Shown piece after piece: positions 3,588 through 32,057 of a stretch of 64,000 nt of DNA. A program made the position numbers and the translations under genes. Under the pieces are notes generated by a model. The model saw only the letters and a program-made list of their open reading frames with translations. It made no database searches and was not told the origin of the DNA. Position 1 is the first letter of the stretch; each line of letters opens with the position of its first letter. Source of the stretch: Candidatus Levyibacteriota bacterium (GTDB lineage: Bacteria > Patescibacteriota > Microgenomatia > Levybacterales > UBA12049); assembly GCA_016182185.1 (NCBI GenBank), contig JACOXU010000001.1, positions 15,700-79,699 of the forward strand, read 5' to 3'.

Positions 3588-5921
3588 ATGGTAGATTACA
3601 GGAACAGCAGGCTATCAAGACGTCGCCTCAGACATAGTTCCTCAAAAATAATTCTCTACAGCAAACTTGCCAAATATGCCTTCTTCGGACTAATAGGATT
3701 TTTAATACTAATGACCGGACTTTTTCTTTGGTATGGACGTGATCTTCCAACGCCCGGAAAATTAATTGAGCCGGATTTATCACAATCTACCAGAATTTAT
3801 GATCGAAACGGTATACTCCTCTACTCTGTTTATCAAACTCAAAACAGAACCTATATTAAACTGTCTGAAATTCCAAAGATACTTCAGCAGGCAACTATTG
3901 CAATTGAAGATAAAAACTTTTATAAAAATCAGGGATTCTCAATTACCGGATATGCAAGAGCAATTAGAAATATCCTGCTTTTCAGGGGTCTTTCAGGAGG
4001 TTCTACGATTACACAGCAGTTGGTAAAGAATGTCTTATTAACTTCTGAGCGCACAATTCCCCGTAAGATAAAAGAGCTAATGCTCTCAATTCAGGTTGAC
4101 AAAAAATATACAAAGGATGAAATTCTGGAGATGTACTTAAATGATGTTCCTTATGGCGGTGCAAATATCGGAGTTGAGGCAGCTGCAGAATCATATTTCG
4201 GAAAAAAAGTTAAAGATTTAAATTTGGCAGAAAGCGCATTTCTGGCAGGTCTTCCTCAGGCGCCCAGTATATATTCTCCCTTTTCCGGAAAAAAATTTTA
4301 TGTCAAGCGAACAGAGGATGTACTTAAACAAATGGTCAACGAGGGAATGATAAGCAATAAACAAAAAGAACAGGCGCTTTCCGAGATAAAGTCAAAAACT
4401 TTTTCAGAAAAAGATACCGCAATAAAAGCTCCACACTTTGTCATGTATGTCAAACAGCTCTTAGCAGAAAAATTCGGTGAAAACTCTATTACCTCAGGTG
4501 GTCTTCAAGTCACAACGACACTCGACTATGAAATTCAAAAAAAGGCAGAGGAGATAATCAAGGACGAGATTAATAAGCTTAAGGGTTTCAATGTTGGAAA
4601 TGGAGCCGCAATCGTGTCAGATCCTAAGACGGGTGAAATTTTGGCAATGGTTGGAAGCAAAGACTATTTCGATACAGACAACGATGGTAATTTTAATGCA
4701 TCGTTATCAAACCGTCAGCCCGGGTCCTCTCTTAAGCCCATCATGTACGCGACAGCATTTGAAAAGGGATACACTGCGTCTACGCTTGTAATAGATGTGA
4801 AGACAGAGCTTCCTTCAAATGATCCAAAGAATCCTATCTATACACCGGTAAATTATGATGGAAAGTATAGAGGTCCCATTCAACTCCGTTTTGCGCTTGG
4901 AAATTCAGTAAATGTGCCTGCGGTCAAAATGCTTGCAAGAGTTGGAATAAAGGACGTTATGCAGCAGGCTTACAATATGGGGATAGAAAACTGGCAGCCA
5001 ACCAAGGAAAACCTGGCTAAAGTCGGGTTCTCGCTTGTCTTAGGAGGTCGGGAGACATCACTTCTTTCAGAAATTACGGCATATGGAGTTTTTGCAACAG
5101 CAGGAATAAGGCAAGATCCTGTCGCCATTTTAAAAGTCGTAGATAGTAAAAATAGTAAATTATTTGAGCATAAGAAAACTGATGGTCAGAAAGTCTTGTC
5201 TTCTGAGGCATCTTTTCTTATCTCTCATATCTTGCTTGACAATAATTCAAGAAGCATGGAATTTGGGACCAATTCGTGGCTTGTTATACCAGGCAGGACA
5301 GTTTCTGTAAAAACTGGTACAACTGATGATAAGAGAGATAACTGGACAATTGGATATACGCCGTCATATGTGGTTGGAGTTTGGGTGGGAAATAATGATA
5401 ATAGTCCAATGAACAAAGCAATTGCCTCAGGGGTCACGGGAGCATCCCCAATTTGGAACAGGATTATGAGGGAGGTTCTAAAAGGAAAAAGCGATGAAGC
5501 ATTTAACAAGCCGGATAATGTAGTTGCTATACAAGTAGATTCGTTCGGAGGAGGATTACCTGTAGGCGGTCAACCAACTCGTTCAGAATATTTTATAAAG
5601 GGAACTGAGCCTACGGGCCCTGGTCAGATTTATCAGAAGCTAAAACTTTCTAAACACCAATCTGGTAAACTCGCCAGTGAGTGGGAGATAAGTCACGGAG
5701 AGTACGATACAAAAGATTACATCGTATTTAAAGAAGAAGATCCTGCTTCAGCAGATGGAAAGAATCGTTGGCAGGAGGGAATTGATGCCTGGCTCAGGGA
5801 AAAATATTCTGCAGCTGATTGGCAATACTATCCGCCCAGAGAAACATCAGACTACAAGGGATCAGATGAATCAAACGAACCAACCCCCACATCTACTTTG
5901 ACTATTTCCCCAACACCCTAG
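3588..5921 (+). CDS. class A penicillin-binding protein (bifunctional transglycosylase/transpeptidase, PBP1A-like)
   Basis: N-terminal TM helix, the GT51 motif IAIEDKNFYKNQG, and transpeptidase motifs SSLKP (SxxK), SVN (SxN) and KTGTT. The C-terminal tail is low-complexity and Pro/Thr-rich. Confidence 0.9.
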   Translation: MVDYRNSRLSRRRLRHSSSKIILYSKLAKYAFFGLIGFLILMTGLFLWYGRDLPTPGKLIEPDLSQSTRIYDRNGILLYSVYQTQNRTYIKLSEIPKILQQATIAIEDKNFYKNQGFSITGYARAIRNILLFRGLSGGSTITQQLVKNVLLTSERTIPRKIKELMLSIQVDKKYTKDEILEMYLNDVPYGGANIGVEAAAESYFGKKVKDLNLAESAFLAGLPQAPSIYSPFSGKKFYVKRTEDVLKQMVNEGMISNKQKEQALSEIKSKTFSEKDTAIKAPHFVMYVKQLLAEKFGENSITSGGLQVTTTLDYEIQKKAEEIIKDEINKLKGFNVGNGAAIVSDPKTGEILAMVGSKDYFDTDNDGNFNASLSNRQPGSSLKPIMYATAFEKGYTASTLVIDVKTELPSNDPKNPIYTPVNYDGKYRGPIQLRFALGNSVNVPAVKMLARVGIKDVMQQAYNMGIENWQPTKENLAKVGFSLVLGGRETSLLSEITAYGVFATAGIRQDPVAILKVVDSKNSKLFEHKKTDGQKVLSSEASFLISHILLDNNSRSMEFGTNSWLVIPGRTVSVKTGTTDDKRDNWTIGYTPSYVVGVWVGNNDNSPMNKAIASGVTGASPIWNRIMREVLKGKSDEAFNKPDNVVAIQVDSFGGGLPVGGQPTRSEYFIKGTEPTGPGQIYQKLKLSKHQSGKLASEWEISHGEYDTKDYIVFKEEDPASADGKNRWQEGIDAWLREKYSAADWQYYPPRETSDYKGSDESNEPTPTSTLTISPTP

Positions 5922-15260: not shown

Positions 15261-15321
15261 GAATACTAATCATGGTTACATATTTGAGTAAAGATGTCAA
15301 GCTTTTAAGCCTGAAGTTTTG

Positions 15322-15393
15322 AGCGGGAGACGGGTATCGCACCCGCGACCTTCTCGTTGGCAACGAGACGTTCTACTGCTGAACTACTCCCGC
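15322..15393 (-). tRNA. tRNA-Gly (anticodon GCC), non-canonical D/T loops
   Basis: Reverse complement GCGGGAGTAGTTCAGCAGTAGAACGTCTCGTTGCCAACGAGAAGGTCGCGGGTGCGATACCCGTCTCCCGCT. The D-loop AGCAGTA has no GG. The T-loop TGCGATA reads UGC where TΨC is expected. Confidence 0.8.
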
Positions 15394-15410
15394 GCGTAAA
15401 TAATTTACTG

Positions 15411-15483
15411 TGCCGAGGGTCAGAGTCGAACTGACATAGCCTGTTCTTCAGACAGGTGCCGTGACCACCTTGGCTACCTCGGC
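15411..15483 (-). tRNA. tRNA-Phe (anticodon GAA)
   Basis: Reverse complement GCCGAGGTAGCCAAGGTGGTCACGGCACCTGTCTGAAGAACAGG...TTCGACT...CCTCGGCA. Confidence 0.9.
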
Positions 15484-15487
15484 TTTG

Positions 15488-15561
15488 TGGACTCCAGAGG
15501 GTTCGAACCTCTGACCTCCTCGGTGTAAACGAGGCGCTCTGACCAGCTGAGCTAGGAGTCC
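15488..15561 (-). tRNA. tRNA-Val (anticodon TAC)
   Basis: Reverse complement GGACTCCTAGCTCAGCTGGTCAGAGCGCCTCGTTTACACCGAGGAGGTCAGAGGTTCGAACCCTCTGGAGTCCA. Confidence 0.9.
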
Positions 15562-15600
15562 AAATAGCTTGCCCTGAGTGAGCAAAGCGAATCGAATGGG

Positions 15601-15687
15601 TGCCGAGGACAGGACTTGAACCTGCACGCCTTTTTTAAGGGCACAAGAACCTCAATCTTGCGTGTATACCAATTTCACCACCTCGGC
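15601..15687 (-). tRNA. tRNA-Leu (anticodon GAG)
   Basis: Reverse complement GCCGAGGTGGTGAAATTGGTATACACGCAAGATTGAGGTTCTTG plus a long variable arm, then GCAGGTTCAAGTCCTGTCCTCGGCA. Confidence 0.85.
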
Positions 15688-15724
15688 TTTTTGGATTATG
15701 ATTATATCAAAATCCTTAAGAATG

Positions 15725-15808
15725 TGCTCTGGGAGAGACTCGAACTCTCACGTTCTTGCGAACACTAGCTTCTGAAGCTAGCCTGTCTGCCAATTTCAGC
15801 ACCAGAGC
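15725..15808 (-). tRNA. tRNA-Leu (anticodon CAG)
   Basis: Reverse complement GCTCTGGTGCTGAAATTGGCAGACAGGCTAGCTTCAGAAGCTAG plus a long variable arm, then GAGAGTTCGAGTCTCTCCCAGAGCA. Confidence 0.85.
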
Positions 15809-16397: not shown

Positions 16398-17564
16398 TTA
16401 TTTTCTCCTTGCTTTGATATATCTTAAATAGTTTTGGCCAAAAATAAAGATAAAAAGAGTAAAAATTCCCGATACTATATAAGGCGCACTTAGATTAAAT
16501 GATGCGATCGCTCCTCCTACCAAGGGTCCTATGATTCTAGCAAGTGATCCGAAGGATTGGGAAACTCCAAGGACTATCCCCTGCTCTGAAACATCTGACT
16601 CAAGCGATATAAGAGATTGAACATTAACATTCACAAGACTTATGCCAAAAGATATAAATGGACCTATGAATAAAGCAAAAACTCCAACCGGTATTAATCC
16701 AATCGCAGTTACTGAGATTGCAAACACAATCAATGCAAGTCGTATAATTTGAGATTCGCTAAACTTTTTAAGAAGAAGTCTAATTAGAAAGACCTGGGTT
16801 ACAAATGATCCTATTCCGATTAAGCCAAAATAATATCCATTTTGAGCTTCATTCCAGCCGAATTTCATCTGGGAATATAGCGGGAAGACCCCTATTATAA
16901 GAGCCAGGGAAAGATTGACAAAAAAGAAAAGAAACATTAAAAAAAACATATTTTTTGGCCGTATTACCTCACGTGTCACTTTCCAGTTTATTAACTGAAT
17001 TTTTATATGCTTCTTAAGGGTTTTATTTGATTCAGGCAGAATAATATAAATCAAGACCGTATTTACAATAGATAATACGGCTGTAATTAAAAACGGAAAT
17101 CCGGCTGAAATACCTGAAGCAACACCTCCAACCAAGGGACCGAAGATAAAACCCAGGCCAAAAACCGCACCAAGCAGAGCCATTCTTTTGGTTCTTTCAT
17201 GGGAAGCCGATGTATCTGCGATATAGGCCTGAGCGACTGAAAGATTTGCACTTCCAATTCCTGCGATAATTCGTGCGAAAATAATAATTGGAAGACTCTG
17301 TGAGGAAAATAGCATAAGATATGAGATTGAGTTTATAAAGGAGCTTAGGATAAGAATCGGCTTTCTACCATATTTATCAGAAAGCCTTCCTAAGACTGGA
17401 GAAAAGATGAATTGAAAAAGCGAAAAAATTGCAATAACTGCTCCGACGAGAAATGCTCCTCCTCCTGTTTTTTCTATTAGAAGCGGGAGAATAGGAATCA
17501 GGATTCCAAATCCCAGAAGGTCGATGAAGGCAACGAGAAGAATCGTAAATAATTTTTTATCCAT
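16398..17564 (-). CDS. MFS transporter (DHA1-like)
   Basis: About 12 TM helices; MFS motif A GRLSDKYGRKPILI. The start is probably the internal Met (MDKKLFTILL). Confidence 0.8.
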   Translation of the reverse strand: MDKKLFTILLVAFIDLLGFGILIPILPLLIEKTGGGAFLVGAVIAIFSLFQFIFSPVLGRLSDKYGRKPILILSSFINSISYLMLFSSQSLPIIIFARIIAGIGSANLSVAQAYIADTSASHERTKRMALLGAVFGLGFIFGPLVGGVASGISAGFPFLITAVLSIVNTVLIYIILPESNKTLKKHIKIQLINWKVTREVIRPKNMFFLMFLFFFVNLSLALIIGVFPLYSQMKFGWNEAQNGYYFGLIGIGSFVTQVFLIRLLLKKFSESQIIRLALIVFAISVTAIGLIPVGVFALFIGPFISFGISLVNVNVQSLISLESDVSEQGIVLGVSQSFGSLARIIGPLVGGAIASFNLSAPYIVSGIFTLFIFIFGQNYLRYIKARRK

Positions 17565-21007: not shown

Positions 21008-21369
21008 TTTTTGTCTATAATGCAGATTCAGGGTTTTTTAATAGCATTAAAGATCTAATTCATAAATCTGTATCACCAAAAACATATGGATGTAATCTTT
21101 GCGGACTCACCTTTAGTGGGGCTTCAATGAAACAAGAATGGAGAGAATTCCTAGATAGTCTTCCGATAAGGGCTACGTTTTTGCATAAAGATGAATTTAC
21201 AAAGCAATACCCAAAATACGCGATGATAACTTATCCAGTTGTATTCAAAAAAGAGAACGGAATACTCAAAGGATTTATTTATACTGATGAGATAAATCAA
21301 CAAAAGACACTTGAAACGCTTCAAAAACTCGTACGAGACAAGATGCAAGCCCACGAGTCTAGGGCTTGA
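20998..21369 (+). CDS. hypothetical protein (123 aa)
   Basis: Contains a GCNLCGLT C-x2-C element; no recognised family. Confidence 0.4.
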   Translation: MELIFVYNADSGFFNSIKDLIHKSVSPKTYGCNLCGLTFSGASMKQEWREFLDSLPIRATFLHKDEFTKQYPKYAMITYPVVFKKENGILKGFIYTDEINQQKTLETLQKLVRDKMQAHESRA

Positions 21370-21892
21370 TAAAACTTTTTTCTCCAGCTCTTATTGCAGC
21401 AGGTAAGATGTTTTCTCCTGGAGTGATAGGACAATCCCATTGGTCATTATAAGAACTGTAGGGATTGTAGGCATAATTAAAATCAATTACTAATTTATCT
21501 CCTTTTTTAGGAATTTGTAACATCCGGCCATTTTTATAAGTTTCTTTACCGGTAGTTTGATCTCTAAACAGTAAGTAATACTGAAACTGTTCCCGCTCTG
21601 GATCTTCAAAAACTATAGCATCTACATTTTGGCCTTCAACATTAAACATAACTTTACCGGCTCTTAAATAGACTTGCTCATCTCCACCCGTAGTTTTAAT
21701 AACAACTTTTTTACCAACATCCGAAATATTCTTATCCAATTCCAGCTCAAAACTTAAACCTGGATTCGGCGGAAAATATTTTAATCCGGTAAAAGTTTCC
21801 TTCTGATCTTCAGTTAAAGGAGACTCAATATTTTCTCTCCAAGCTCTATCCTTCTGTTTTCTAAATTCTAATAGTTTTTCTTTACTGTACAT
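21359..21892 (-). CDS. DUF1684-like protein
   Basis: GLKYFPPNP...DFNYAYNPYS... pattern resembling DUF1684. It is the last gene of the co-directional redox block. Confidence 0.5.
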   Translation of the reverse strand: MYSKEKLLEFRKQKDRAWRENIESPLTEDQKETFTGLKYFPPNPGLSFELELDKNISDVGKKVVIKTTGGDEQVYLRAGKVMFNVEGQNVDAIVFEDPEREQFQYYLLFRDQTTGKETYKNGRMLQIPKKGDKLVIDFNYAYNPYSSYNDQWDCPITPGENILPAAIRAGEKSFIKP

Positions 21893-21895
21893 AAT

Positions 21896-24283
21896 CTATT
21901 TTTTACTCCTTACATTGTGTCCACCGAACTCATGACGTAAAGCCGAGACAACCTGACCGGTATATGAGGGTTTTCCTTGAGATTTTTTTCTAAACTCGAC
22001 TGCCCCCTCAATAATTTCTACTGGTACGTCCATTTCTCTTGCTGTTTCAACAGTCCATTTCCCTTCGCCGCTTTGAGATACTTTTCCAGAACAACATTCT
22101 TGGGTATTTAGATCATCGCCAAACTTGGCATACGCATCTTTAAGCCATCCGACAAGACGAGAAGTAATAACCGAACCGTGATTGTAAAGATCGGCAACGG
22201 AATACAAATCAAGTGAAAAAGGAGACTTTTTAAGAATCTCAAATCCTTCACCAATTGACTGCATCATACCGTACTCGATCCCGTTATGTACCATTTTTAC
22301 GAAATGTCCAGCGCTGGCATTGCCCATATAGCCGTATCCATCTTTAATCGATAAATCTCGGAATAAAGGCTCATGTCTTTCATAAAGTTCTTTTTTACCT
22401 CCAACCATAATACAAGCACCATTGAGCGCACCATCCGGACCACCTGAAACTCCAACGTCCAAGAAATTAATTCCACTTTTGTCTAGGTCTTTTGAGCGAC
22501 GGATAGAGTCTTTATAAGGTGAATTACCACCGTCTATAATAGTGTCTCCTTTTTCAAGAAGAGGTACAAGCTCGTTTAAAACTTCGTCAACTGCCTGGTA
22601 AGATGCCATTAGCCAAATTGTGCGGGGGTTTTTAAGTTTTTCAACCAGTTCTTCCAGAGAATGGGTGCCAAGAATCCCTTCAGACTCATAAACCTTGGTT
22701 ACCTCGTAAGTCCTGTTATAACCGTACACCTTCCATCCTTTTGAAACTAATTGTTTCGCCAGATTTGCCCCCATTTTCCCAAGACCTATAATCCCTATTT
22801 CGTTTATTTTTACCTTTCCTTTTTTGATCATATTTCCCCTCGCGCTTTTATCTAATTCAGGGGCTGGAGTTGTGTCCGGTTTGTATTTCAAAAGCGGAGC
22901 AAGATTTTCCTTCCATGCCTCAATGACAGGGTCTGCAAATTTCCACTGAGCTTCAACTTCATTTTGAGAAATAAAAAGCGATTGATCAGCATGTATAGCG
23001 TGATAAAGAACCTTTGCGTATTCTTCAACATATTGTACTTTGGTTTGCTTTTTGTATAAAAAGAATGAAAAAGTTCTTTCCTCAAGCACTCGTTCAAACC
23101 CCGGTTTTTTAGTCCAGAAATGAATTACTATTTCATCCCTTGGTTCAAGGCGAAAAACTATACGATTTGGTGTATGCTTGCGGATTTCACACAAGTGGCA
23201 CACTTTTGGATGTTTTAATGTTAAGACAATTTCTTTTCGCACCTCTCCCATACGCTTACCTGCTGAAAGTGTTATCGATACACCTTTCCATTTTGGATGA
23301 AGAAGTTCAGTTTTAAGCGCAAAATATGTTTCCGTATTGGAGTTAGGTGTAACGTCTTGAATCTCTTTGTAGCCTTTATATTGCGCTCGGAATGTGTTCT
23401 TTGTTAAAATTTCCCTTCTCCACGGCAAAAGAGCCTCAAGGATTTTTGCTCTGGTTTTTCTGATGCCTGTTTCTTCTTCGTTTGATGGATATTCCATAGT
23501 GAGCGCAGCAAGCATTGAGAGAAGATGATTTTGTCCCACATCCCGCAAAGCTCCAACCTGATCATAAAAGCTTCCTCTATCTTCAACGCCTATTTTTTCA
23601 TGAAGCTGCAGATCAATGCTGTCGATGGTTGAATTATCCCAAATGTTCTCAAAGAGATTATTGGAAAATCGAAAATTTTCTATTCCCTGAACTATTTCTT
23701 TAAAAAGGTAGTGATCAATGCGGTAAATTTGCTCTTCCTTAAAATATGAAGAGAGAAGTGTCTGAAGCTTTCTTGCCGTTGCAAGATTGGTACCAAACGG
23801 TTTTTCAATAAGAATTCTGCTCCAGCCGAGTTTTCCTCCACAAGGGATGTTTAATTTCACTGCTGCAAGGTTTTTGAAAATCAAATCATAATTTATTGGC
23901 GGAACTGCCAGATAAAAAAGCTTATTAGCACAAATTCCCCATAAATTTTCTGTTTCGCTAATTTTGTTGACTAGAGCCTGATATGCTTTTTCATCTTCAA
24001 AAGTGCCATTCTGATAAGAAAAGGTCACAAAAAATTTCGAGAATTTCTCGCTTGTTACGTTTTCCCCGCTGCGTTTTTTAACCGAATCGAAAACATAGTC
24101 TTTAAATTCTTGAGCAGAAAAATCTCTTCTTGAAAAGCCTATAACGGAAATGTTATCGGGCAAAAGGTTCTGCTCGAAGAGGTGCCAGAGAGAAGGAATA
24201 ATTTTTTTTGCCGCCAGGTCTCCCGTTACGCCAAATATTACAAGAATTGTCGGTATTTCTTTTGATATTTCCTTTGATTCCAT
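21896..24283 (-). CDS. fused glucose-6-phosphate 1-dehydrogenase / 6-phosphogluconate dehydrogenase (decarboxylating)
   Basis: N-terminal half: G6PD motifs GVTGDLAAKKIIPSL (dinucleotide-binding) and RIDHYLFKE (G6PD signature RIDHYLGKE). C-terminal ~300 aa: 6PGDH motifs IGIIGLGKMGANLA, GGNSPYKDSIRR, GVSGGPDGALNG, GHFVKMVHNGIEYG, GEGKWT. Single uninterrupted ORF of 808 aa; the start is probably the Met at MESKEIS. Confidence 0.85.
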   Translation of the reverse strand: MESKEISKEIPTILVIFGVTGDLAAKKIIPSLWHLFEQNLLPDNISVIGFSRRDFSAQEFKDYVFDSVKKRSGENVTSEKFSKFFVTFSYQNGTFEDEKAYQALVNKISETENLWGICANKLFYLAVPPINYDLIFKNLAAVKLNIPCGGKLGWSRILIEKPFGTNLATARKLQTLLSSYFKEEQIYRIDHYLFKEIVQGIENFRFSNNLFENIWDNSTIDSIDLQLHEKIGVEDRGSFYDQVGALRDVGQNHLLSMLAALTMEYPSNEEETGIRKTRAKILEALLPWRREILTKNTFRAQYKGYKEIQDVTPNSNTETYFALKTELLHPKWKGVSITLSAGKRMGEVRKEIVLTLKHPKVCHLCEIRKHTPNRIVFRLEPRDEIVIHFWTKKPGFERVLEERTFSFFLYKKQTKVQYVEEYAKVLYHAIHADQSLFISQNEVEAQWKFADPVIEAWKENLAPLLKYKPDTTPAPELDKSARGNMIKKGKVKINEIGIIGLGKMGANLAKQLVSKGWKVYGYNRTYEVTKVYESEGILGTHSLEELVEKLKNPRTIWLMASYQAVDEVLNELVPLLEKGDTIIDGGNSPYKDSIRRSKDLDKSGINFLDVGVSGGPDGALNGACIMVGGKKELYERHEPLFRDLSIKDGYGYMGNASAGHFVKMVHNGIEYGMMQSIGEGFEILKKSPFSLDLYSVADLYNHGSVITSRLVGWLKDAYAKFGDDLNTQECCSGKVSQSGEGKWTVETAREMDVPVEIIEGAVEFRKKSQGKPSYTGQVVSALRHEFGGHNVRSKK

Positions 24284-24288
24284 AATTA

Positions 24289-25638
24289 TTATTCGATTGC
24301 AAAAAATGCCCTTTGTAACCATTCTGGTAAAGCTGGGTGAATATAAACAGAATTTGTAATTGCTTTTACAGTTCCATTTGCCTTCATGGCAACAATTACT
24401 TCATGAATTAGGGTAGATGCTTCATGACCTACGATATGAGCTCCAAGAATTTTTTCTCCATTCTTATCAGTTAGAACTTTTGCGAGTCCATTTTCTTGTA
24501 ATGCTCCACCCATACCGGTATCTTTGAGCTCTGCTCTCCCTACTTTATAAGCTGTACCTTCTTTTTTAAGCTCTTGCTCTGTTTTACCAACTCCACCAAC
24601 CTGAGGAGATGAAAAAACCGCATGACCTATTGCAAAGGGATTAAATGGTACTTTTTTATCAGTAAAAGCGTTTCTAATTGAAAATCCAACTTGGTCATTG
24701 GCGGTATGTCGAAACGGCAAGATACCAAGTATATCCCCAAACGCCCAGATACCATCAACATTTGTCTCAAGGTACTCATTAACCTTAATATACCCATTGT
24801 CATTCACCTCAACTCCTGTTGTCTTAACATCTAAGATGTCGGTATTGGGAACTCTGCCAGTAACAACCAGCAATTGATCACTCTCAAGTTTTCTTTCACT
24901 GTCTTTTAAGGTAATAATGAAATTGCCGTTTTGGTAGGAAACCGACTCTGCCTGTGTATTAAAGAGAATTTCATATTTTTTAGAAAACTTCTTGGTGAAC
25001 CATTGGGCTATTTCTTCATCTTCATCACTCAACATGAGATTTCCCCTGACCAAAATTGTAATTTTAGTTCCTAAAGCTCCATAAAAATGTGCAAGCTCTG
25101 CTGCTATATAACCGCCGCCTATAATTATTAAATGTTTTGGTTGTTTCTCAAGCCTTAATGCTTTTGTACTATCTAGAAATGGTGTATTTTTCAAACCCGG
25201 AATTGGGGGTATGGAAGGCCTGGTGCCTCCGACAATAAATACTTTATCAGCCTCAATCTGACCATCTCCTACCTGCATTTGTTTTGGACCAATAAACTTA
25301 CCGCGCATTTTATAGAGGATAGGGTTTCCGTTTTCTCTGACAGACTTTTCAATACCGGCCGAATCAGTATCTACCACCTCAGAGACTCGTTTTACGATCG
25401 ATGCAAAATCTATGCTTTCTATCTTGCTTTTAATCCCAAATTTTCCGCTATTTTTAATAGCTTCAGCAACATCCGATGAGTGGATCAACATCTTTGAGGG
25501 TATGCAACCTCGATTTAGACACGTTCCACCCAGCGGGCCTTCTTCGACTATTGCAACAGACATTTCTTTTTCTGCAGCAAATGATGCTACTTCGAGTCCG
25601 GCTCCTGATCCCACAACTAAAACATCAAACTTTTTCAT
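24289..25638 (-). CDS. class I flavoprotein pyridine nucleotide-disulfide oxidoreductase (glutathione reductase / Lpd-like)
   Basis: FAD-binding GSGAGL; redox-active GGTCLNRGCIPSK; a second Rossmann GGGYIAAEL with a VRG element; a C-terminal dimerisation domain with HPALPE. Confidence 0.85.
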   Translation of the reverse strand: MKKFDVLVVGSGAGLEVASFAAEKEMSVAIVEEGPLGGTCLNRGCIPSKMLIHSSDVAEAIKNSGKFGIKSKIESIDFASIVKRVSEVVDTDSAGIEKSVRENGNPILYKMRGKFIGPKQMQVGDGQIEADKVFIVGGTRPSIPPIPGLKNTPFLDSTKALRLEKQPKHLIIIGGGYIAAELAHFYGALGTKITILVRGNLMLSDEDEEIAQWFTKKFSKKYEILFNTQAESVSYQNGNFIITLKDSERKLESDQLLVVTGRVPNTDILDVKTTGVEVNDNGYIKVNEYLETNVDGIWAFGDILGILPFRHTANDQVGFSIRNAFTDKKVPFNPFAIGHAVFSSPQVGGVGKTEQELKKEGTAYKVGRAELKDTGMGGALQENGLAKVLTDKNGEKILGAHIVGHEASTLIHEVIVAMKANGTVKAITNSVYIHPALPEWLQRAFFAIE

Positions 25639-25675: not shown

Positions 25676-25876
25676 TTAACTGCTCGTACTGTGTTGTTGT
25701 CCATGTGTTGCTAAATCTTGTGGAGATTTTGCTTTCATGCCGCATTTAGAGCATATTATCGAATGTTCTTCTTGCTCATCTTTATTACTGTGCATTTGTT
25801 TTGCGTGGGAATCCATTTCATCTTGAGAATCAAACTGACCTCCGCACATAGGACATTTTAATTTATTGCTATCCAT
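25676..25876 (-). CDS. small protein with two C2H2-type zinc-finger-like motifs (66 aa)
   Basis: CPMCGGQFDSQDEMDSHAKQMH and CSKCGMKAKSPQDLATHGQQH both fit C-x2-C-x12-H-x3/4-H. A strong GGAGGTGA RBS lies 8 nt upstream. Confidence 0.6.
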   Translation of the reverse strand: MDSNKLKCPMCGGQFDSQDEMDSHAKQMHSNKDEQEEHSIICSKCGMKAKSPQDLATHGQQHSTSS

Positions 25877-25917: not shown

Positions 25918-26166
25918 TTATAAACCTAGCACTTTATCTAAAGCTTCTTTATTAAATCCTAAAATCGCAACTTCCTTTCCATCGTCTTTTACAATATGTG
26001 TGCAGGGTACTCCCATAGATTTGCAAATATGCATTGCCTCTGCTGCCTTATCTGGATTATAGTCAAGAACTATATCCTCAAAAGAAATATTCTTCTCTTT
26101 TAAGTAGCTCTTCAGCATATGACAATAGGGACAAGCTGTTGTCGAGTAAACTTTTATTTTAGCCAT
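25918..26166 (-). CDS. glutaredoxin (CPYC active site)
   Basis: KVYSTTACPYCHMLKSYL is a classic Grx CPYC motif and fold; about 82 aa starting from the MAKIKVY ATG. The ORF-track start at 26175 is a GTG. Confidence 0.8.
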   Translation of the reverse strand: MAKIKVYSTTACPYCHMLKSYLKEKNISFEDIVLDYNPDKAAEAMHICKSMGVPCTHIVKDDGKEVAILGFNKEALDKVLGL

Positions 26167-26461
26167 TTCTATCACCTGCCTTCATTTTATCCTTATGCAT
26201 TATTATTAGATTTTTGTTTGCGTCAAGCGCCTTTTTCAGCTCTTCATTTGAAGGCTCAACAAGAACCTCGCCATTAGGAAACAAAATAGTCGGAATCGAC
26301 TGCATTCCGCGATTTATCTCTTCAACTTCTGCTGCTGCACTTGGATCTTTATCTATATTTATGTATTCGTACATAACACCTCTTTGGTCAAGAAAGAATC
26401 TAGATCTATGGCAATCGGCGCACCAGTCAGCTCCATAAAATTTTATATGCTTCGAACTCAT
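26159..26461 (-). CDS. glutaredoxin-like / thioredoxin-fold protein (CADC active site)
   Basis: IKFYGADWCADCHRSRFFL is a Cx2C motif in the thioredoxin-fold position, with a later ...SIPTILFPNG cis-Pro-type region. Confidence 0.7.
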   Translation of the reverse strand: MSSKHIKFYGADWCADCHRSRFFLDQRGVMYEYINIDKDPSAAAEVEEINRGMQSIPTILFPNGEVLVEPSNEELKKALDANKNLIIMHKDKMKAGDRNG

Positions 26462-27800: not shown

Positions 27801-29462
27801 TTAATTTGAGTAAAGTTCGGTATCCGGGTGGAACGCGGCCCAGGCAAACCAGAATAACCTGATGGGAATTATTTCTTCTTGGGTTTCAAGATTGATAGTT
27901 TTAATTTGTCCTGAATCAAGTTTTTCGAGTCGTAGGTTTATATCACCAATTTGATCCTCAATTATTTTTCGGTTGTCAAACACGCTTTCAGGATATGCTT
28001 TTGATAATCCATCCAGCTCAATCCCATAAACGACAGTCTTGATCTGAAGACTTTTATTTAATCCCTTTACTCCAAACAGTAGTTGGTCATCCTGCTCATA
28101 AGTGCCATAAGGATATTGGTCGTAATCCCTGCTGTGGTCTGTTTCCCGTGATAGAACTTGAGTATTAGGATGTTTTCGTTTCCATTCGCCCCATGTGGTT
28201 GTTACAATTGGTACCTGTTTTAGCTTTTCATTTCGACGGGCCGCTTCACCAACAATAGCCTCCCCTGTTATTTGTTGCCAGAGATTCCCTTCGTATCTGT
28301 CATACATAACAAGATCCGAATTATGCAGTTTTCCGGATACACCAAATTCCGTGATAACTCCGTCAACTTTTCTTTCAAATGCAAGAGCGGAACCGCAAAG
28401 CGGACAAAAAGTAATCGCAACTGGATCACCTGCAGCAATATCATTTACAATCTCATGCCAATTTAGGATTCGTTGAGGATAGGCTCGTTGTACCCCCATA
28501 TAATCAATTGCAAATACAACGTCATCATCCCGTAACCAACTAGCCTGCGTTGCTGATTCAAATTTAGGTTTATCAATCGATGGAATACAATCTTTTCCAC
28601 CAAAACAGCCTTGGAGCAAATCGCTTTTATCCACCTTAGCACCTGTGAAATCATTGGCGAGGGATACATCACGAACTACTGTTTCACCAGGTTTAGCTTT
28701 TTGCGTCTTTTTTCCACTTAAAGCCCTAAGTTGCTTGTCAATATTCACGCTTTTTTCAAACGTAGTTGCAAGCTGTGTCCATGAAGCAGGTAAATTTGCA
28801 AGCGTCCATGCCTGCAGTATTCTATCTGCTCCGGTCCATAAAAATAAAGCTGTGCCCAATATAATAATCCCAAAGATTTGTCTAATTTTTTGGTTGTTTG
28901 CTTTAACAAAACCAAGTCTTGCGGAAGCCGCGCGTCCGCCTTTTGCGATAAAATAGAGAGGAACGGCTGTTCCTAAAGCATAAGAAAATACTATTAAAAC
29001 AGATCCGAATGAGAGTGAATTTACTGCTGCGAGTGTTGCAACAGCCGCAACAACTGGACCAATACAGGGAGTCCACACAACTCCAAGACTTACACCTGTA
29101 ACAAGTCCCCCTCCGAATCCGCTACCTTGGTTTTGCACTGGACGGACTTGCCAGAAACGCTCAATTAGTATCAACGCCTTTTCCCAAATAATAGGAAAGA
29201 CCATGCTTAAACCAAAAATGACTAACAGTATTACAGCAATATTTCGAATTGTATCTGCAGGAATTCCAAAAACTTTTACAACTGTTGCAAGAAGAAGTGC
29301 GGCAATCGTAAAACTCACAACAAGCCCTATTATAACACCTCTTATTCGCCATATTTTTCCTTCAATTCCGCTTGCTAAAATAATGGGCAGAATGGGAAGA
29401 ACACATGGTGAAAAAACAGTTAAAACTCCTGACACAAATGCAATAGGTAAAAGCAAAAACAT
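27801..29462 (-). CDS. CcdA/DsbD-type thiol-disulfide transporter fused to a C-terminal DUF3179-like domain
   Basis: N-terminal ~240 aa: polytopic membrane domain with VFSPCVLPILP (CcdA/DsbD beta signature) and a second Cys (VWTPCIGP). C-terminal ~300 aa: ITFCPLCGS...FGVSGKL..DLVMYDR..GNLWQQ pattern typical of DUF3179. Confidence 0.75.
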   Translation of the reverse strand: MFLLLPIAFVSGVLTVFSPCVLPILPIILASGIEGKIWRIRGVIIGLVVSFTIAALLLATVVKVFGIPADTIRNIAVILLVIFGLSMVFPIIWEKALILIERFWQVRPVQNQGSGFGGGLVTGVSLGVVWTPCIGPVVAAVATLAAVNSLSFGSVLIVFSYALGTAVPLYFIAKGGRAASARLGFVKANNQKIRQIFGIIILGTALFLWTGADRILQAWTLANLPASWTQLATTFEKSVNIDKQLRALSGKKTQKAKPGETVVRDVSLANDFTGAKVDKSDLLQGCFGGKDCIPSIDKPKFESATQASWLRDDDVVFAIDYMGVQRAYPQRILNWHEIVNDIAAGDPVAITFCPLCGSALAFERKVDGVITEFGVSGKLHNSDLVMYDRYEGNLWQQITGEAIVGEAARRNEKLKQVPIVTTTWGEWKRKHPNTQVLSRETDHSRDYDQYPYGTYEQDDQLLFGVKGLNKSLQIKTVVYGIELDGLSKAYPESVFDNRKIIEDQIGDINLRLEKLDSGQIKTINLETQEEIIPIRLFWFAWAAFHPDTELYSN

Positions 29463-29463
29463 A

Positions 29464-29925
29464 TTAGTTTATTTGTGCAACTAAAGTATCAAAATCTCCG
29501 CCAATCCATCGTTTTATTTCGTTTCCCTGACTGTCAAGATAAACCATTGTATGCTGTTGTGCTATACCATACTTTTTCTTATTGAAGCTGTCGTGGTCGT
29601 AGTCAATCTTAAGTACTGTTAGGTTTTCGGGAAGCGATGCGCTTTTCTCTCTTAATTCTTTGTCTAAAGCAGAACATGTATTACACCATGCAGTTGCTGC
29701 AAAAAACAATACGGTATTTCCGTTTCCATATGCTTGCGTTAAGGTTCCTTCGGAATAATCAAAATAATGTGGGGAAATGGGTTGAAAATCAGCAAGTACT
29801 CTTTGCTGTGGGACTGTTTTATTTACAAAAAAATTATTAAAAAGAACTCCCGCAAAAATTACCCCCAGTACTATTATGGCAGTTGTAATTCCATTTAATT
29901 TCGTATTTTTTATTTTTAAAGTCAT
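29464..29925 (-). CDS. membrane-anchored thioredoxin-like protein (TlpA/ResA-like), WCNTC
   Basis: N-terminal TM anchor; Trx fold with active site WCNTC. Confidence 0.8.
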   Translation of the reverse strand: MTLKIKNTKLNGITTAIIVLGVIFAGVLFNNFFVNKTVPQQRVLADFQPISPHYFDYSEGTLTQAYGNGNTVLFFAATAWCNTCSALDKELREKSASLPENLTVLKIDYDHDSFNKKKYGIAQQHTMVYLDSQGNEIKRWIGGDFDTLVAQIN

Positions 29926-30365
29926 ATTAGTTGTTGTTTTATTGTTTCAATGCCGCCACCTATCCAATTATGTACTTCGTTCCCTTCGCTATCGACTTGT
30001 ACAAGTGTATGCTGTTGAACAATATTATATTTTTGTTTTAGCTCTTTTTCGGTATCGTAGTTTACCTGTAAAATAGTCACATCGTCAGGCAATTCACCAC
30101 TTCTTTCTTTAAGTTCCTCATCAAGGACTTTGCATGTTGGACACCATGAAGCCCAAAAATAGAGAACGGGGCGACCATTTGTCTTTCCAGCGGCAAGGTT
30201 CTCTTCTGAGTATTTAAGATAATGTGGGGCGATTTCTCCAGAATTGTCTTGAGTAGCTGTTATACTTCTTGTAGTATCTTTGGTCTTAGATTGCGTAAGA
30301 AAAACACCTCCTAAAATCACAATAAGAAGTATTATCACAATAGCAATTATTTTCCCGATCTTCAT
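29922..30365 (-). CDS. membrane-anchored thioredoxin-like protein (TlpA/ResA-like), WCPTC
   Basis: N-terminal TM anchor; active site WCPTC. Paralog of 29464-29925. Confidence 0.8.
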   Translation of the reverse strand: MKIGKIIAIVIILLIVILGGVFLTQSKTKDTTRSITATQDNSGEIAPHYLKYSEENLAAGKTNGRPVLYFWASWCPTCKVLDEELKERSGELPDDVTILQVNYDTEKELKQKYNIVQQHTLVQVDSEGNEVHNWIGGGIETIKQQLI

Positions 30366-30445: not shown

Positions 30446-30847
30446 TTAATTAAGATTCGTAAGCAATGCTTCTACCCCTTTACCTCCGCTATTCCATCTC
30501 GTAATTTCCTTTCCCTGACTATCAACTTGAATAAATGTATCCTGCATGGTGATAGCATACTTTTTCTTCATGGCAGAATCATTATCATAGTCGACTTTAA
30601 GAATAGTTACATCTCCCGGAACTTCATCAAAATTTGCCTTAAAATTCCTGTCTGCTGCCTGACATGAAGGACACCAGGCAAGCGCCGCAAAGAAAAGAAC
30701 AGCACAACCATTGTTTGCCGTTGCTTTGGAAAGAGAATTTGATGAATAGTCAACATAGCGAGTTGCTATCGCAGAATCATTGGAGCCCATTGCAGAATCG
30801 TCTTCCATCATTTCCCCAGCTTCCATAAATGATCCGTCAGTCCACAT
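30446..30847 (-). CDS. thioredoxin-like protein (TlpA-like paralog), WCPSC, no N-terminal anchor
   Basis: Trx domain homologous to the two upstream paralogs (…VLFFAALAWCPSC…) but with an acidic 25-aa N-terminus instead of a TM helix. There is no in-frame upstream start before a stop at 30908. Confidence 0.6.
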   Translation of the reverse strand: MWTDGSFMEAGEMMEDDSAMGSNDSAIATRYVDYSSNSLSKATANNGCAVLFFAALAWCPSCQAADRNFKANFDEVPGDVTILKVDYDNDSAMKKKYAITMQDTFIQVDSQGKEITRWNSGGKGVEALLTNLN

Positions 30848-30888: not shown

Positions 30889-31164
30889 TTAATACTTCTC
30901 TGTTATCTTAACTACAGTGCCGTCATTTAGCGTGGCATCCTTCGTCATTGGTCTTAACTCATGATTTTTTTCAATCATCATCTTTCCGTCCTTTAAGATG
31001 TATCCAGTACCCATCATACTGTCCTCATTCTTCTCTTCCGTTACTCCTTGTACTGATGTTGTGTCTTGGGATAAAGGATCGTTTTTAGACTGCCCATTCA
31101 GAAGGAAAAAACCTCCGCTTAAAACTATCGCCGCTATTATTCCTAAGATGAGATACGTTTTCAT
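30889..31164 (-). CDS. small secreted/membrane-anchored protein (91 aa)
   Basis: Signal/TM helix MKTYLILGIIAAIVLSGGFF; GGAGGTGA RBS; Met-rich segment MMGTGYILKDGKMMIEK. It is the first gene downstream of the Crp/Fnr regulator. Confidence 0.5.
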   Translation of the reverse strand: MKTYLILGIIAAIVLSGGFFLLNGQSKNDPLSQDTTSVQGVTEEKNEDSMMGTGYILKDGKMMIEKNHELRPMTKDATLNDGTVVKITEKY

Positions 31165-31394: not shown

Positions 31395-32057
31395 TTAAGA
31401 GGACAGTTGCTCTAGGTGTGAGGAATTAAACTGGAGCATTTTTTTTGAACGCTTAATATGCCCCTTTTTCTCTAGTTGGTTAATAAGGGTTGTTACAGTT
31501 TGTCGTGAGATGCCAAGCATCTGGGCAAGTTCTTCATGTGTAAATTTATCTGATATCTCCATATAATCTTCAGATTTTGGCTTACCTAGGCTCAAAAGTA
31601 ACTTAACTAATCTTTGAAATGCATTATCGGCGGCCACTGAGGACATTCGCTTCTCAACTGAAAGAAGTCTATTAAAAAGCTGCTTCATTAATTTTTCAGA
31701 TAGGTCCGGATACTGAGAGATTAGTGTAAAAAAATTGTTTTTTTCAAGAGAGCACACATATGAATCAACCGTTGCCTCCACAAATATCTCAGATGAACCC
31801 TCAGAGCCTAAATCTCCAAATAAACTTCCCGGACGCAGCCTTTCTATTATCGTCTTTTTACCTGATGGGGTGAGCTGAAACAATTCCACTTGGCCAGTTT
31901 TTACAAGAAATACTTTATCTCTGTCTCCAGGTTCAAAAATTACCTCTCTTTTACTATATTCCTTCATAGCAAACAGAGACTCTATTTTATGAAGTTTATC
32001 TTTCGCTAAGTCTTTAAACAAATCGAGCTGTTGAATGTACCAAAGCTTCTTGTTCAT
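31395..32057 (-). CDS. Crp/Fnr-family transcriptional regulator
   Basis: N-terminal cNMP-binding-like beta-roll; C-terminal HTH (HEELAQMLGISRQTVTTLINQLEKKGHI). Confidence 0.85.
   Translation of the reverse strand: MNKKLWYIQQLDLFKDLAKDKLHKIESLFAMKEYSKREVIFEPGDRDKVFLVKTGQVELFQLTPSGKKTIIERLRPGSLFGDLGSEGSSEIFVEATVDSYVCSLEKNNFFTLISQYPDLSEKLMKQLFNRLLSVEKRMSSVAADNAFQRLVKLLLSLGKPKSEDYMEISDKFTHEELAQMLGISRQTVTTLINQLEKKGHIKRSKKMLQFNSSHLEQLSS

Follow-up and report, generated by a model that had tools for sequence, protein, structure and literature searches.

A CcdA::DUF3179 fusion protein of candidate phyla radiation bacteria as a putative extracytoplasmic thiol/selenol redox module

A stretch of 64,000 nucleotides of a Candidatus Levyibacteriota genome (contig JACOXU010000001.1, positions 15,700 to 79,699; guanine-plus-cytosine content ~36%), hereafter called the window, carries on its minus strand, at 27801..29462, an open reading frame (ORF) of 553 codons plus stop, whose codon positions were checked, in which a CcdA membrane domain is joined to a DUF3179 domain. 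The entire gene is supported by the ORF list, by the Pfam domains that it encodes and by more than 110 full-length orthologues. The six-helix CcdA part and the DUF3179 domain tethered to it plausibly constitute a CcdA-powered extracytoplasmic thiol/selenol redox module, a reading to which we assign a probability of about 0.6. Domain composition, topology, residue conservation, exchange of cysteine for selenocysteine, recurrent linkage in fusions and operons, fold similarity and internal duplication were all computed directly.

Architecture, topology and distribution of the fusion protein

Pfam identifies DsbD_TM (PF02683; residues 3-209, E 1.9e-14) and DsbD_2 (E 2.3e-7) in the N-terminal part of the protein, and DUF3179 (PF11376) at residues 290-513, with 298.8 bits against a cutoff of 27 (E 6.1e-89). 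The PF11376 motif [TS]-[YFW]-C-P-L-C-G-[ST] is found within ITFCPLCGS, at residues 350-358. An earlier sequence-only reading of the window had recognised both a CcdA/DsbD N-terminal domain carrying FSPCVLP and WTPCIGP and a C-terminal DUF3179, and would have fallen had no DUF3179 profile been matched; all the motifs that it quoted are present, and Pfam agrees on both domains. The CcdA membrane domain spans residues 1-212 (28827..29462, minus strand). The solved CcdA of Thermus thermophilus (PDB 5vkv) aligns over residues 2-230, covering all six transmembrane (TM) helices, and the helices of the AlphaFold2 model agree with this six-helix assignment. As in CcdA proteins, TM1 and TM4 hold one cysteine each, preceded by proline (P19-C20 and P132-C133). 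Both redox cysteines, encoded at 29403-29405 (C20) and 29064-29066 (C133) on the minus strand, are invariant in 59 orthologues.

Positive charges alternate sharply among the loops. Loops 1, 3 and 5 contain 3, 3 and 5 Lys/Arg residues (11 in total), against none in loops 2 and 4 and in the N-terminal tail, and the same pattern holds across the 59 orthologues. The charge bias, along with the six TM helices, therefore predicts that both termini of the CcdA part face outward, and that DUF3179 is located outside the membrane. The orientation agrees with that of CcdA. The cytoplasmic placement which the sequence-only reading had named as fatal to its proposal is thus disfavoured. The same reading had placed an extra hydrophobic segment after CcdA; the 5vkv alignment identifies it (residues 194-212) as the canonical TM6. 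A seventh helix moving DUF3179 into the cytoplasm was considered, and rejected on the grounds of the same alignment and of the loop charges.

A linker follows at residues 213-284 (28611..28826, minus strand), made of short helices and then of a low-confidence stretch. The predicted local distance difference test score (pLDDT) falls below 50 at residues 227-237 and 243-252, and the linker columns are poorly conserved in the alignment of fusion orthologues. The DUF3179 domain, plausibly extracytoplasmic, occupies residues 285-553 (27804..28610, minus strand). Modelled alone, it reaches a pLDDT of 82.8 and a predicted template modelling score (pTM) of 0.79.

More than 110 proteins, 54-85% identical to the window protein, span the full query with the same two domains. 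The named sources are Candidatus Daviesbacteria, Levybacteria, Gottesmanbacteria and Roizmanbacteria, all Microgenomates of the candidate phyla radiation (CPR), and public annotation calls these proteins just "DUF3179 domain-containing protein". One Daviesbacteria protein (P0023, 663 amino acids) is annotated as an ArsR/SmtB regulator in frame with CcdA::DUF3179. It is probably a merged gene call, because two Daviesbacteria genomes (loci L084 and L085) have ArsR as a gene of its own, located upstream. The DUF3179 family as a whole is large, and includes 8,958 clusters at 50% identity (E<=1e-3) in Bacteria and Archaea. The 150 representatives analysed are the family members most similar to the query. 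They are mostly 300-360 amino acids long, and carry a single N-terminal signal or anchor; lipobox-like signals were found in 14 family members, sorting tails of the type IX secretion system in a few. P0162, P0263 and about 20 further representatives of ~670 amino acids feature a CarboxypepD_reg-like domain, ~300 unannotated residues and then DUF3179. A twin-arginine translocation (Tat)-like motif occurs in one of 140 homologues. Taken together, the signals indicate that members of the family are exported by the Sec route.

Conserved cysteines and a duplicated fold

Six cysteines, C20, C133, C286, C292, C353 and C356, are invariant in the 59 fusion orthologues. Family-wide conservation was counted over 148 diverse DUF3179 domains. 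C353 is kept in 142 of these and C356 in 133, threonine (9 domains) or serine (5 domains) being found at the latter position; H336 is kept in 144 and E337 in 142. N340, D341, S376, Y387, D388, W395 and Q397 are conserved to a similar degree. The putative active centre can be written H336-E337-x15-C353-P-L-C356 (28395..28457, minus strand), and rests on this conservation and on the spacing of 17 residues from histidine to cysteine. In sixteen variants one or both cysteines of the CPLC motif are missing, yet H336, E337 and the polar/aromatic pocket persist, which argues against a structural Cys2His metal knot and fits better a catalytic cysteine set in a substrate pocket.

The cysteines of the accessory pair C286-x5-C292 (GCFGGKDC; 28587..28607, minus strand) behave differently from those of CPLC. 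Both are present in 44 of the 148 domains, one is never found alone, and the two positions are otherwise mostly Gly/Gly. Given this perfect co-variation, and the prevalence of Gly/Gly elsewhere, the pair is to be seen as optional, probably a disulfide, rather than as part of an obligatory four-cysteine site. A Zn(Cys)4 site built by C286/C292 and C353/C356 was rejected as a general explanation, since two-thirds of the family have Gly/Gly and yet keep CPLC. A role as CcdA-specific relay was rejected as well, the pair being uncorrelated with CcdA adjacency.

DUF3179 has been listed among the prokaryotic selenoprotein families, with the motif UxxC/T, in which U is selenocysteine (PMC9312934, PMC13188914); the former paper credits a study of Olavius symbionts (PMC1976440) as source of the listing. 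The selenocysteine form was found in a metagenome-assembled genome of Dehalococcoidaceae (L016). Reading of the frame at 3816-3824, plus strand, places an in-frame TGA exactly at the C353 position (...LLITY-TGA-PLCGSGVAYER...; LLITY*PLCGSG), and conservation continues past the TGA. A hairpin downstream of this codon, checked as a possible selenocysteine insertion sequence, has no folding advantage over shuffled sequence (z 0.10). The window gene has a TGT codon at C353, and is thus a cysteine homologue rather than a selenoprotein gene. The pairing of selenocysteine and cysteine at one position is a recognised sign that the residue is reactive, in most cases in redox chemistry. By this token C353 is judged to be a reactive residue, replaced by selenocysteine in some members of the family.

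The domain is built, as far as profiles tell, by an internal duplication of a beta-module, with HE...CPLC only in the first copy. Module 1, Rieske-like, corresponds to residues 300-425 (28188..28565, minus strand), module 2, a degenerate copy devoid of the histidine and the cysteines, to residues 465-553 (27804..28070, minus strand); HHalign matches the two with a probability of 98.7% (E 3.3e-16, 83 columns). In some homologues (P0122, 1004 amino acids; P0124, 1587 amino acids) DUF3179 is repeated in tandem, with four to six copies per protein. The CPLC domain is not of the thioredoxin type: Pfam reports no match to thioredoxin families in residues 271-553, and the region is mainly beta.

The likeness of module 1 to Rieske domains stems from spacing and layout. 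In 133 of 135 family members C353 comes 17 residues after H336, and the same distance separates the box I histidine from the box II cysteine in five Rieske sequences (H-x16-C-P-x-H). Read side by side, DUF3179 and Rieske sequences also show the same order of elements, that is hairpin, loop, hairpin and C-P-x-x-G. On this reading, a manual alignment without tool output, CPLCGS would correspond to Rieske box II (C-P-x-H-G), with histidine changed to cysteine. DUF3179 retains just two of the four Rieske ligand identities, position 334 (the box I cysteine) varying among N, V, D and T; the four-ligand pattern C-x-H ... C-x-x-H is absent, box II being C-P-L-C. Pfam gave no Rieske (PF00355) match to the DUF3179 domain even at E<=10. 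HHalign of the 148 DUF3179 domains gave no signal against a single Rieske sequence, and a probability of 0.2% against a thin profile of six Rieske sequences. Foldseek retrieved from the PDB weak matches to Rieske oxygenases, none at E<=0.001, and no solved DUF3179 structure was found by sequence and profile search of the PDB. Because neither Pfam nor HHalign gave a sequence-level signal, the link is placed at the level of the modelled fold only, and DUF3179 is better described as having a Rieske-like scaffold than as a Rieske protein.

Linkage of DUF3179 to CcdA and thioredoxins

Fusions and gene order in relatives repeatedly bring DUF3179 close to thioredoxins and CcdA. Of 69 long representatives, 22 include an AhpC-TSA/Redoxin domain and 19 give a match to Thioredoxin, these domains being located either N- or C-terminally to DUF3179; all the thioredoxin-type fusions inspected feature the WCxxC typical of TlpA/ResA-type reductases. 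The protein P0122, mentioned above for its tandem domains, has a TlpA-type Redoxin domain at the N-terminus. In Woesearchaeota, Pacearchaeota, Nanoarchaeota and Methanosarcinales, DUF3179, standalone or fused to Redoxin, lies a few nucleotides from separate ccdA and thioredoxin genes. One woesearchaeal locus (L024 5073-7600, plus strand) has two different CcdA paralogues (229 and 263 amino acids) at either side of DUF3179, and thioredoxin-like genes at both ends. DsbD_TM is the commonest family (11) among the 123 immediate neighbours of 68 standalone DUF3179 genes, AhpC-TSA/Redoxin (5) and Thioredoxin_8 (4) coming next.

In the window the fusion gene sits in a series of minus-strand genes. A CRP/FNR regulator is followed by a small DUF6799 protein, three WCxxC thioredoxin-like proteins, CcdA::DUF3179, a LUD-domain protein and a small membrane protein; next come two glutaredoxin/NrdH-like proteins, a C2H2 zinc-finger protein, a Pyr_redox_2 disulfide reductase and a G6PD::6PGD fusion. 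The thioredoxin-like gene adjacent to the fusion (29464..29925; WCNTC; Pfam Thioredoxin E 3e-6) encodes a membrane-anchored protein, and its stop lies 1 nucleotide before the fusion start. It is overlapped by 4 nucleotides by the preceding gene (29922..30365; WCPTC; E 3e-12), whose product is also membrane-anchored and shows weak NCBIfam similarities to ResA, DsbE and StoA. The third thioredoxin-like protein (30446..30847; WCPSC; E 1e-7) has, as listed, no obvious N-terminal anchor. Candidate cytoplasmic donors are the two glutaredoxin/NrdH-like CxxC proteins (26159-26461 and 25918-26175; Pfam Glutaredoxin E 9e-12 and 2e-11), and a candidate NADPH-linked reductase is the FAD/NAD(P)H disulfide oxidoreductase encoded at 24289..25638 (Pfam Pyr_redox_2 and Pyr_redox_dim), for which all NCBIfam matches are below equivalog cutoffs.

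The order regulator-thioredoxin-thioredoxin-fusion-glutaredoxin is found in a Gottesmanbacteria genome (L001) as in the window, and in both L001 and L002 the fusion is immediately followed by a glutaredoxin gene. In the two Daviesbacteria genomes (L084 and L085) the order is ArsR-thioredoxin-fusion, and a Pyr_redox_2 gene follows 2-5 kb after the fusion; in a further locus (L003) it is thioredoxin-fusion-cupredoxin-AhpC/TSA. Gene order in the window, synteny in relatives, independent thioredoxin fusions and unfused archaeal operons thus largely support the notion that DUF3179 is tied to a CcdA/TlpA-type envelope-reducing pathway.

Other genes of the cluster, all on the minus strand, deserve mention. 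The series is headed by the CRP/FNR-family regulator (31395..32057; Pfam cNMP_binding and HTH_Crp_2). The DUF6799 protein, of 91 amino acids and TM-anchored (30889-31164), lies 41 nucleotides upstream of the third thioredoxin-like ORF, and may be either its partner or the other part of a split gene. The G6PD::6PGD fusion (21896..24322, 808 amino acids; Pfam G6PD_N, G6PD_C, NAD_binding_2 and 6PGD) shares 34 nucleotides with the disulfide-reductase gene upstream of it, and might be the NADPH source of the redox cluster, an association suggested by position and strand alone. Between the glutaredoxin-like genes and the reductase a protein of 66 amino acids (25676-25876) features two C2H2-type zinc-finger motifs, which are unusual in bacteria. 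A DUF1684 gene (21359-21892) lies just past G6PD::6PGD, itself after the reductase gene; in Daviesbacteria (L084) a DUF1684 gene (16449-16976) directly follows the Pyr_redox_2 reductase, which suggests a conserved pairing of DUF1684 with this reductase. A scan of 21.5-32.5 kb for promoters and terminators yielded fewer promoter-like sites than shuffled sequence did, and does not define operon boundaries. Elsewhere, five of the 14 tRNA genes in the window (Gly, Phe, Val, Leu, Leu) are clustered within 500 nucleotides at 15321-15808, minus strand.

Proposed pathway, alternatives and known counterparts

In the scheme proposed, electrons would pass from NADPH to the flavoprotein disulfide reductase, to the glutaredoxin/NrdH-like proteins and to C20/C133 of CcdA, and would be handed by the co-transcribed membrane-anchored WCxxC thioredoxins to C353/C356 of DUF3179, tethered by the ~70-residue linker to the outward-facing C-terminus of CcdA. 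The final acceptor would be an oxidised cell-surface substrate; a peroxide, a sulfoxide, and a protein or small-molecule disulfide are candidates. In the first module H336 and C353-P-L-C356 would stand where Rieske proteins have their cluster ligands, C353 and C356 forming a redox-active dithiol. C353 is the putative nucleophile because selenocysteine is found there in some homologues, C356 the putative resolving residue because it is threonine or serine in ~10% of the family. D291, E337, N340, D341, S376, Y387, D388, R389, W395 and Q397 may make up a substrate-binding pocket. Inferred parts of the scheme are the path of the electrons and its direction, the thioredoxin relay in place of direct transfer, the catalytic roles of residues and the substrate.

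The sequence-only reading had cast DUF3179 as an extracytoplasmic redox partner receiving electrons from CcdA itself. The partnership finds support in the near-invariant C353, or selenocysteine, in the thioredoxin fusions, in the archaeal operons and in the Sec-route export. Direct transfer is instead less likely than a thioredoxin relay, since all the CPR and archaeal contexts examined encode thioredoxins as well, and other lineages have them fused to DUF3179. The Rieske-like duplicated fold and the second, co-varying cysteine pair C286/C292 had not been foreseen in that reading. Likewise, the expectation that the fusion would assign DUF3179 a function is borne out in part: the fusion assigns the domain to a pathway, and stops short of a biochemical function. 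One may tentatively go further, at the price of more doubt, and regard DUF3179 as an unrecognised class of extracytoplasmic reductase, dependent on cysteine or selenocysteine and built on a duplicated Rieske-derived module in which the [2Fe-2S] ligands would have been replaced by a histidine plus a CxxC thiol centre. Such an enzyme would be the terminal member of a chain running from NADPH through flavoprotein, glutaredoxin, CcdA and thioredoxin to DUF3179, and would repair or detoxify an oxidised cell-surface substrate in CPR and DPANN organisms. Its invariant cysteine or selenocysteine, glutamine, tryptophan and asparagine may be likened to the tetrad of glutathione peroxidases.

Several observations weigh against the redox module. 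The AlphaFold2 model of the full fusion has a pTM of 0.52 and a linker pLDDT below 50, which makes the inter-domain geometry unreliable. About 4% of the family lack C353 and yet keep the pocket, which may thus act independently of the cysteine. Most proteobacterial DUF3179 loci have no CcdA or thioredoxin neighbour, and no neighbour is consistent among them. No published account of the function or fold of DUF3179, or of a link to CcdA/TlpA, was found in the searchable literature. Moreover, CcdA/TlpA pathways also reduce the cysteines of metal-binding clients, such as Sco and CoxB; therefore the genomic linkage is compatible with catalysis and with metal binding alike.

This last point leads to the alternative that best survives, unlikely as we hold it to be. 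DUF3179 could bind a metal, for example Cu(I), Zn, Fe or Hg, through H336, C353, C356 and possibly E337, in a mononuclear site left from the Rieske pocket, the pathway serving just to keep the ligand cysteines reduced. The Rieske-like fold, with histidine and cysteine at ligand-equivalent positions and with the same 17-residue spacing, is in line with such a site. So are the genes around the fusion in L003, where cupredoxin/COX2-like genes, a DsbD_2-cupredoxin fusion and a Cu-ATPase are found, and the ArsR/SmtB-type regulators located upstream in Daviesbacteria, including the one annotated as part of P0023; both contexts also speak against the redox module. Several metal-handling families listed in the same selenoprotein tables likewise have the UxxC motif (PMC9312934, PMC13188914). 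Against metal binding, a ligand would be lost in the 14 of 148 domains in which C356 is changed to threonine or serine, and H336, E337 and the pocket persist in variants lacking both cysteines. The box I cysteine position varies, copper genes occur in one examined context alone, and sequence comparison with Pfam and the PDB matched no known metal-binding family. As a separate observation, a 115-amino acid ORF located just downstream of the fusion locus in L003 (10707-11054, minus strand) has a true Rieske ferredoxin motif (CPH...CPWH) and PDB matches at E 1e-7; it is absent from the called genes of that contig, and a search of a large protein database retrieved no relatives.

It is far less credible that the fusion is meaningless for DUF3179, CcdA being a mere membrane tether that replaces the single anchor, with thioredoxin-like proteins and other substrates as its real clients. 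Standalone DUF3179 proteins do normally have one N-terminal anchor, the CcdA fusion is confined to one CPR clade among the 150 representatives, and linkage is missing at most proteobacterial loci. Yet association with the pathway recurs independently, in N- and C-terminal fusions to WCxxC thioredoxins, in archaeal operons and in the top rank of DsbD_TM among neighbours, and the selenocysteine/cysteine pair marks a reactive cysteine. The notion that DUF3179 is a true Rieske-type protein, holding a [2Fe-2S] cluster by an unusual ligand set, can practically be dismissed, given the two ligand identities kept out of four, the variable (N/V/D/T) box I position, the lack of profile similarity (HHalign 0.2%, no Pfam Rieske match at E<=10), the selenocysteine, threonine and serine at supposed ligand positions, and an export route, after a six-TM protein and without twin-arginine signal in 139 of 140 homologues, which delivers the protein unfolded and is therefore incompatible with a cytoplasmically inserted cluster, Rieske proteins requiring Tat export.

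The family and the architecture were already in public databases, and the selenocysteine motif had been published. What the proposed module would add is an envelope-reducing pathway with a new kind of terminal domain, and a testable role, in a CcdA/TlpA-type pathway, for a large family with almost no literature. CPR bacteria and DPANN archaea mostly lack c-type cytochromes. On this general knowledge, cytochrome maturation is an unlikely role for the window CcdA, and the DUF3179 link suggests a purpose for CcdA where no cytochrome c needs maturing. The duplicated Rieske-like fold, if confirmed, would be a case of an iron-sulfur scaffold turned into a thiol or selenol centre.

Comparison with known systems sets the fusion apart in several ways. 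Rieske ferredoxins and domains (3gce, 2qpz, 1vm9) differ from DUF3179, which lacks the box I cysteine, has cysteine in place of the box II histidine, is duplicated, uses the Sec export route and includes a selenocysteine variant; DUF3179 is almost certainly not an iron-sulfur protein. With respect to the DUF3179 selenoproteins of the UxxC/T type, C353 of the window protein is the selenocysteine position, and the protein is a cysteine form fused to CcdA; the published records of these selenoproteins give family and motif alone, and are silent on function, fold and pathway (PMC9312934, PMC13188914). The operon logic, transporter plus anchored thioredoxin(s) plus cysteine-containing client, is the same as in CcdA-ResA-apocytochrome c, TlpA-Sco/CoxB, Streptococcus CcdA-Etrx-MsrAB2 and Neisseria DsbD-PilB. 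The features of the CcdA-ResA, TlpA, Etrx-MsrAB2 and DsbD-PilB pathways are well established. The client here would be DUF3179, not described as a substrate of any of them in the literature searched; elsewhere this putative client is joined to a thioredoxin domain, as happens in PilB/MsrAB.

Compared with the CcdA of T. thermophilus (5vkv), the window protein has in addition an extracytoplasmic C-terminal extension of ~340 residues, made of linker and DUF3179. It is not a full-length DsbD, which comprises an N-terminal Ig-like alpha domain, an eight-TM beta domain and a thioredoxin-fold gamma domain: it has six TM helices instead of eight, lacks the alpha domain, and ends with a duplicated Rieske-like domain rather than a thioredoxin fold. 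Over the membrane core NCBIfam scores are far below cutoff, both for DsbD (37.5 against 330 bits) and for TsoB (30.7 against 805 bits). The C-terminal periplasmic domain nevertheless stands in the position of DsbD-gamma. The window protein shares with DsbD (alpha-beta-gamma), with ScsB and with the rhodanese/DsbD fusion selenoprotein TsoB a common design, in which a CcdA-like core is covalently joined to an electron-using periplasmic domain.

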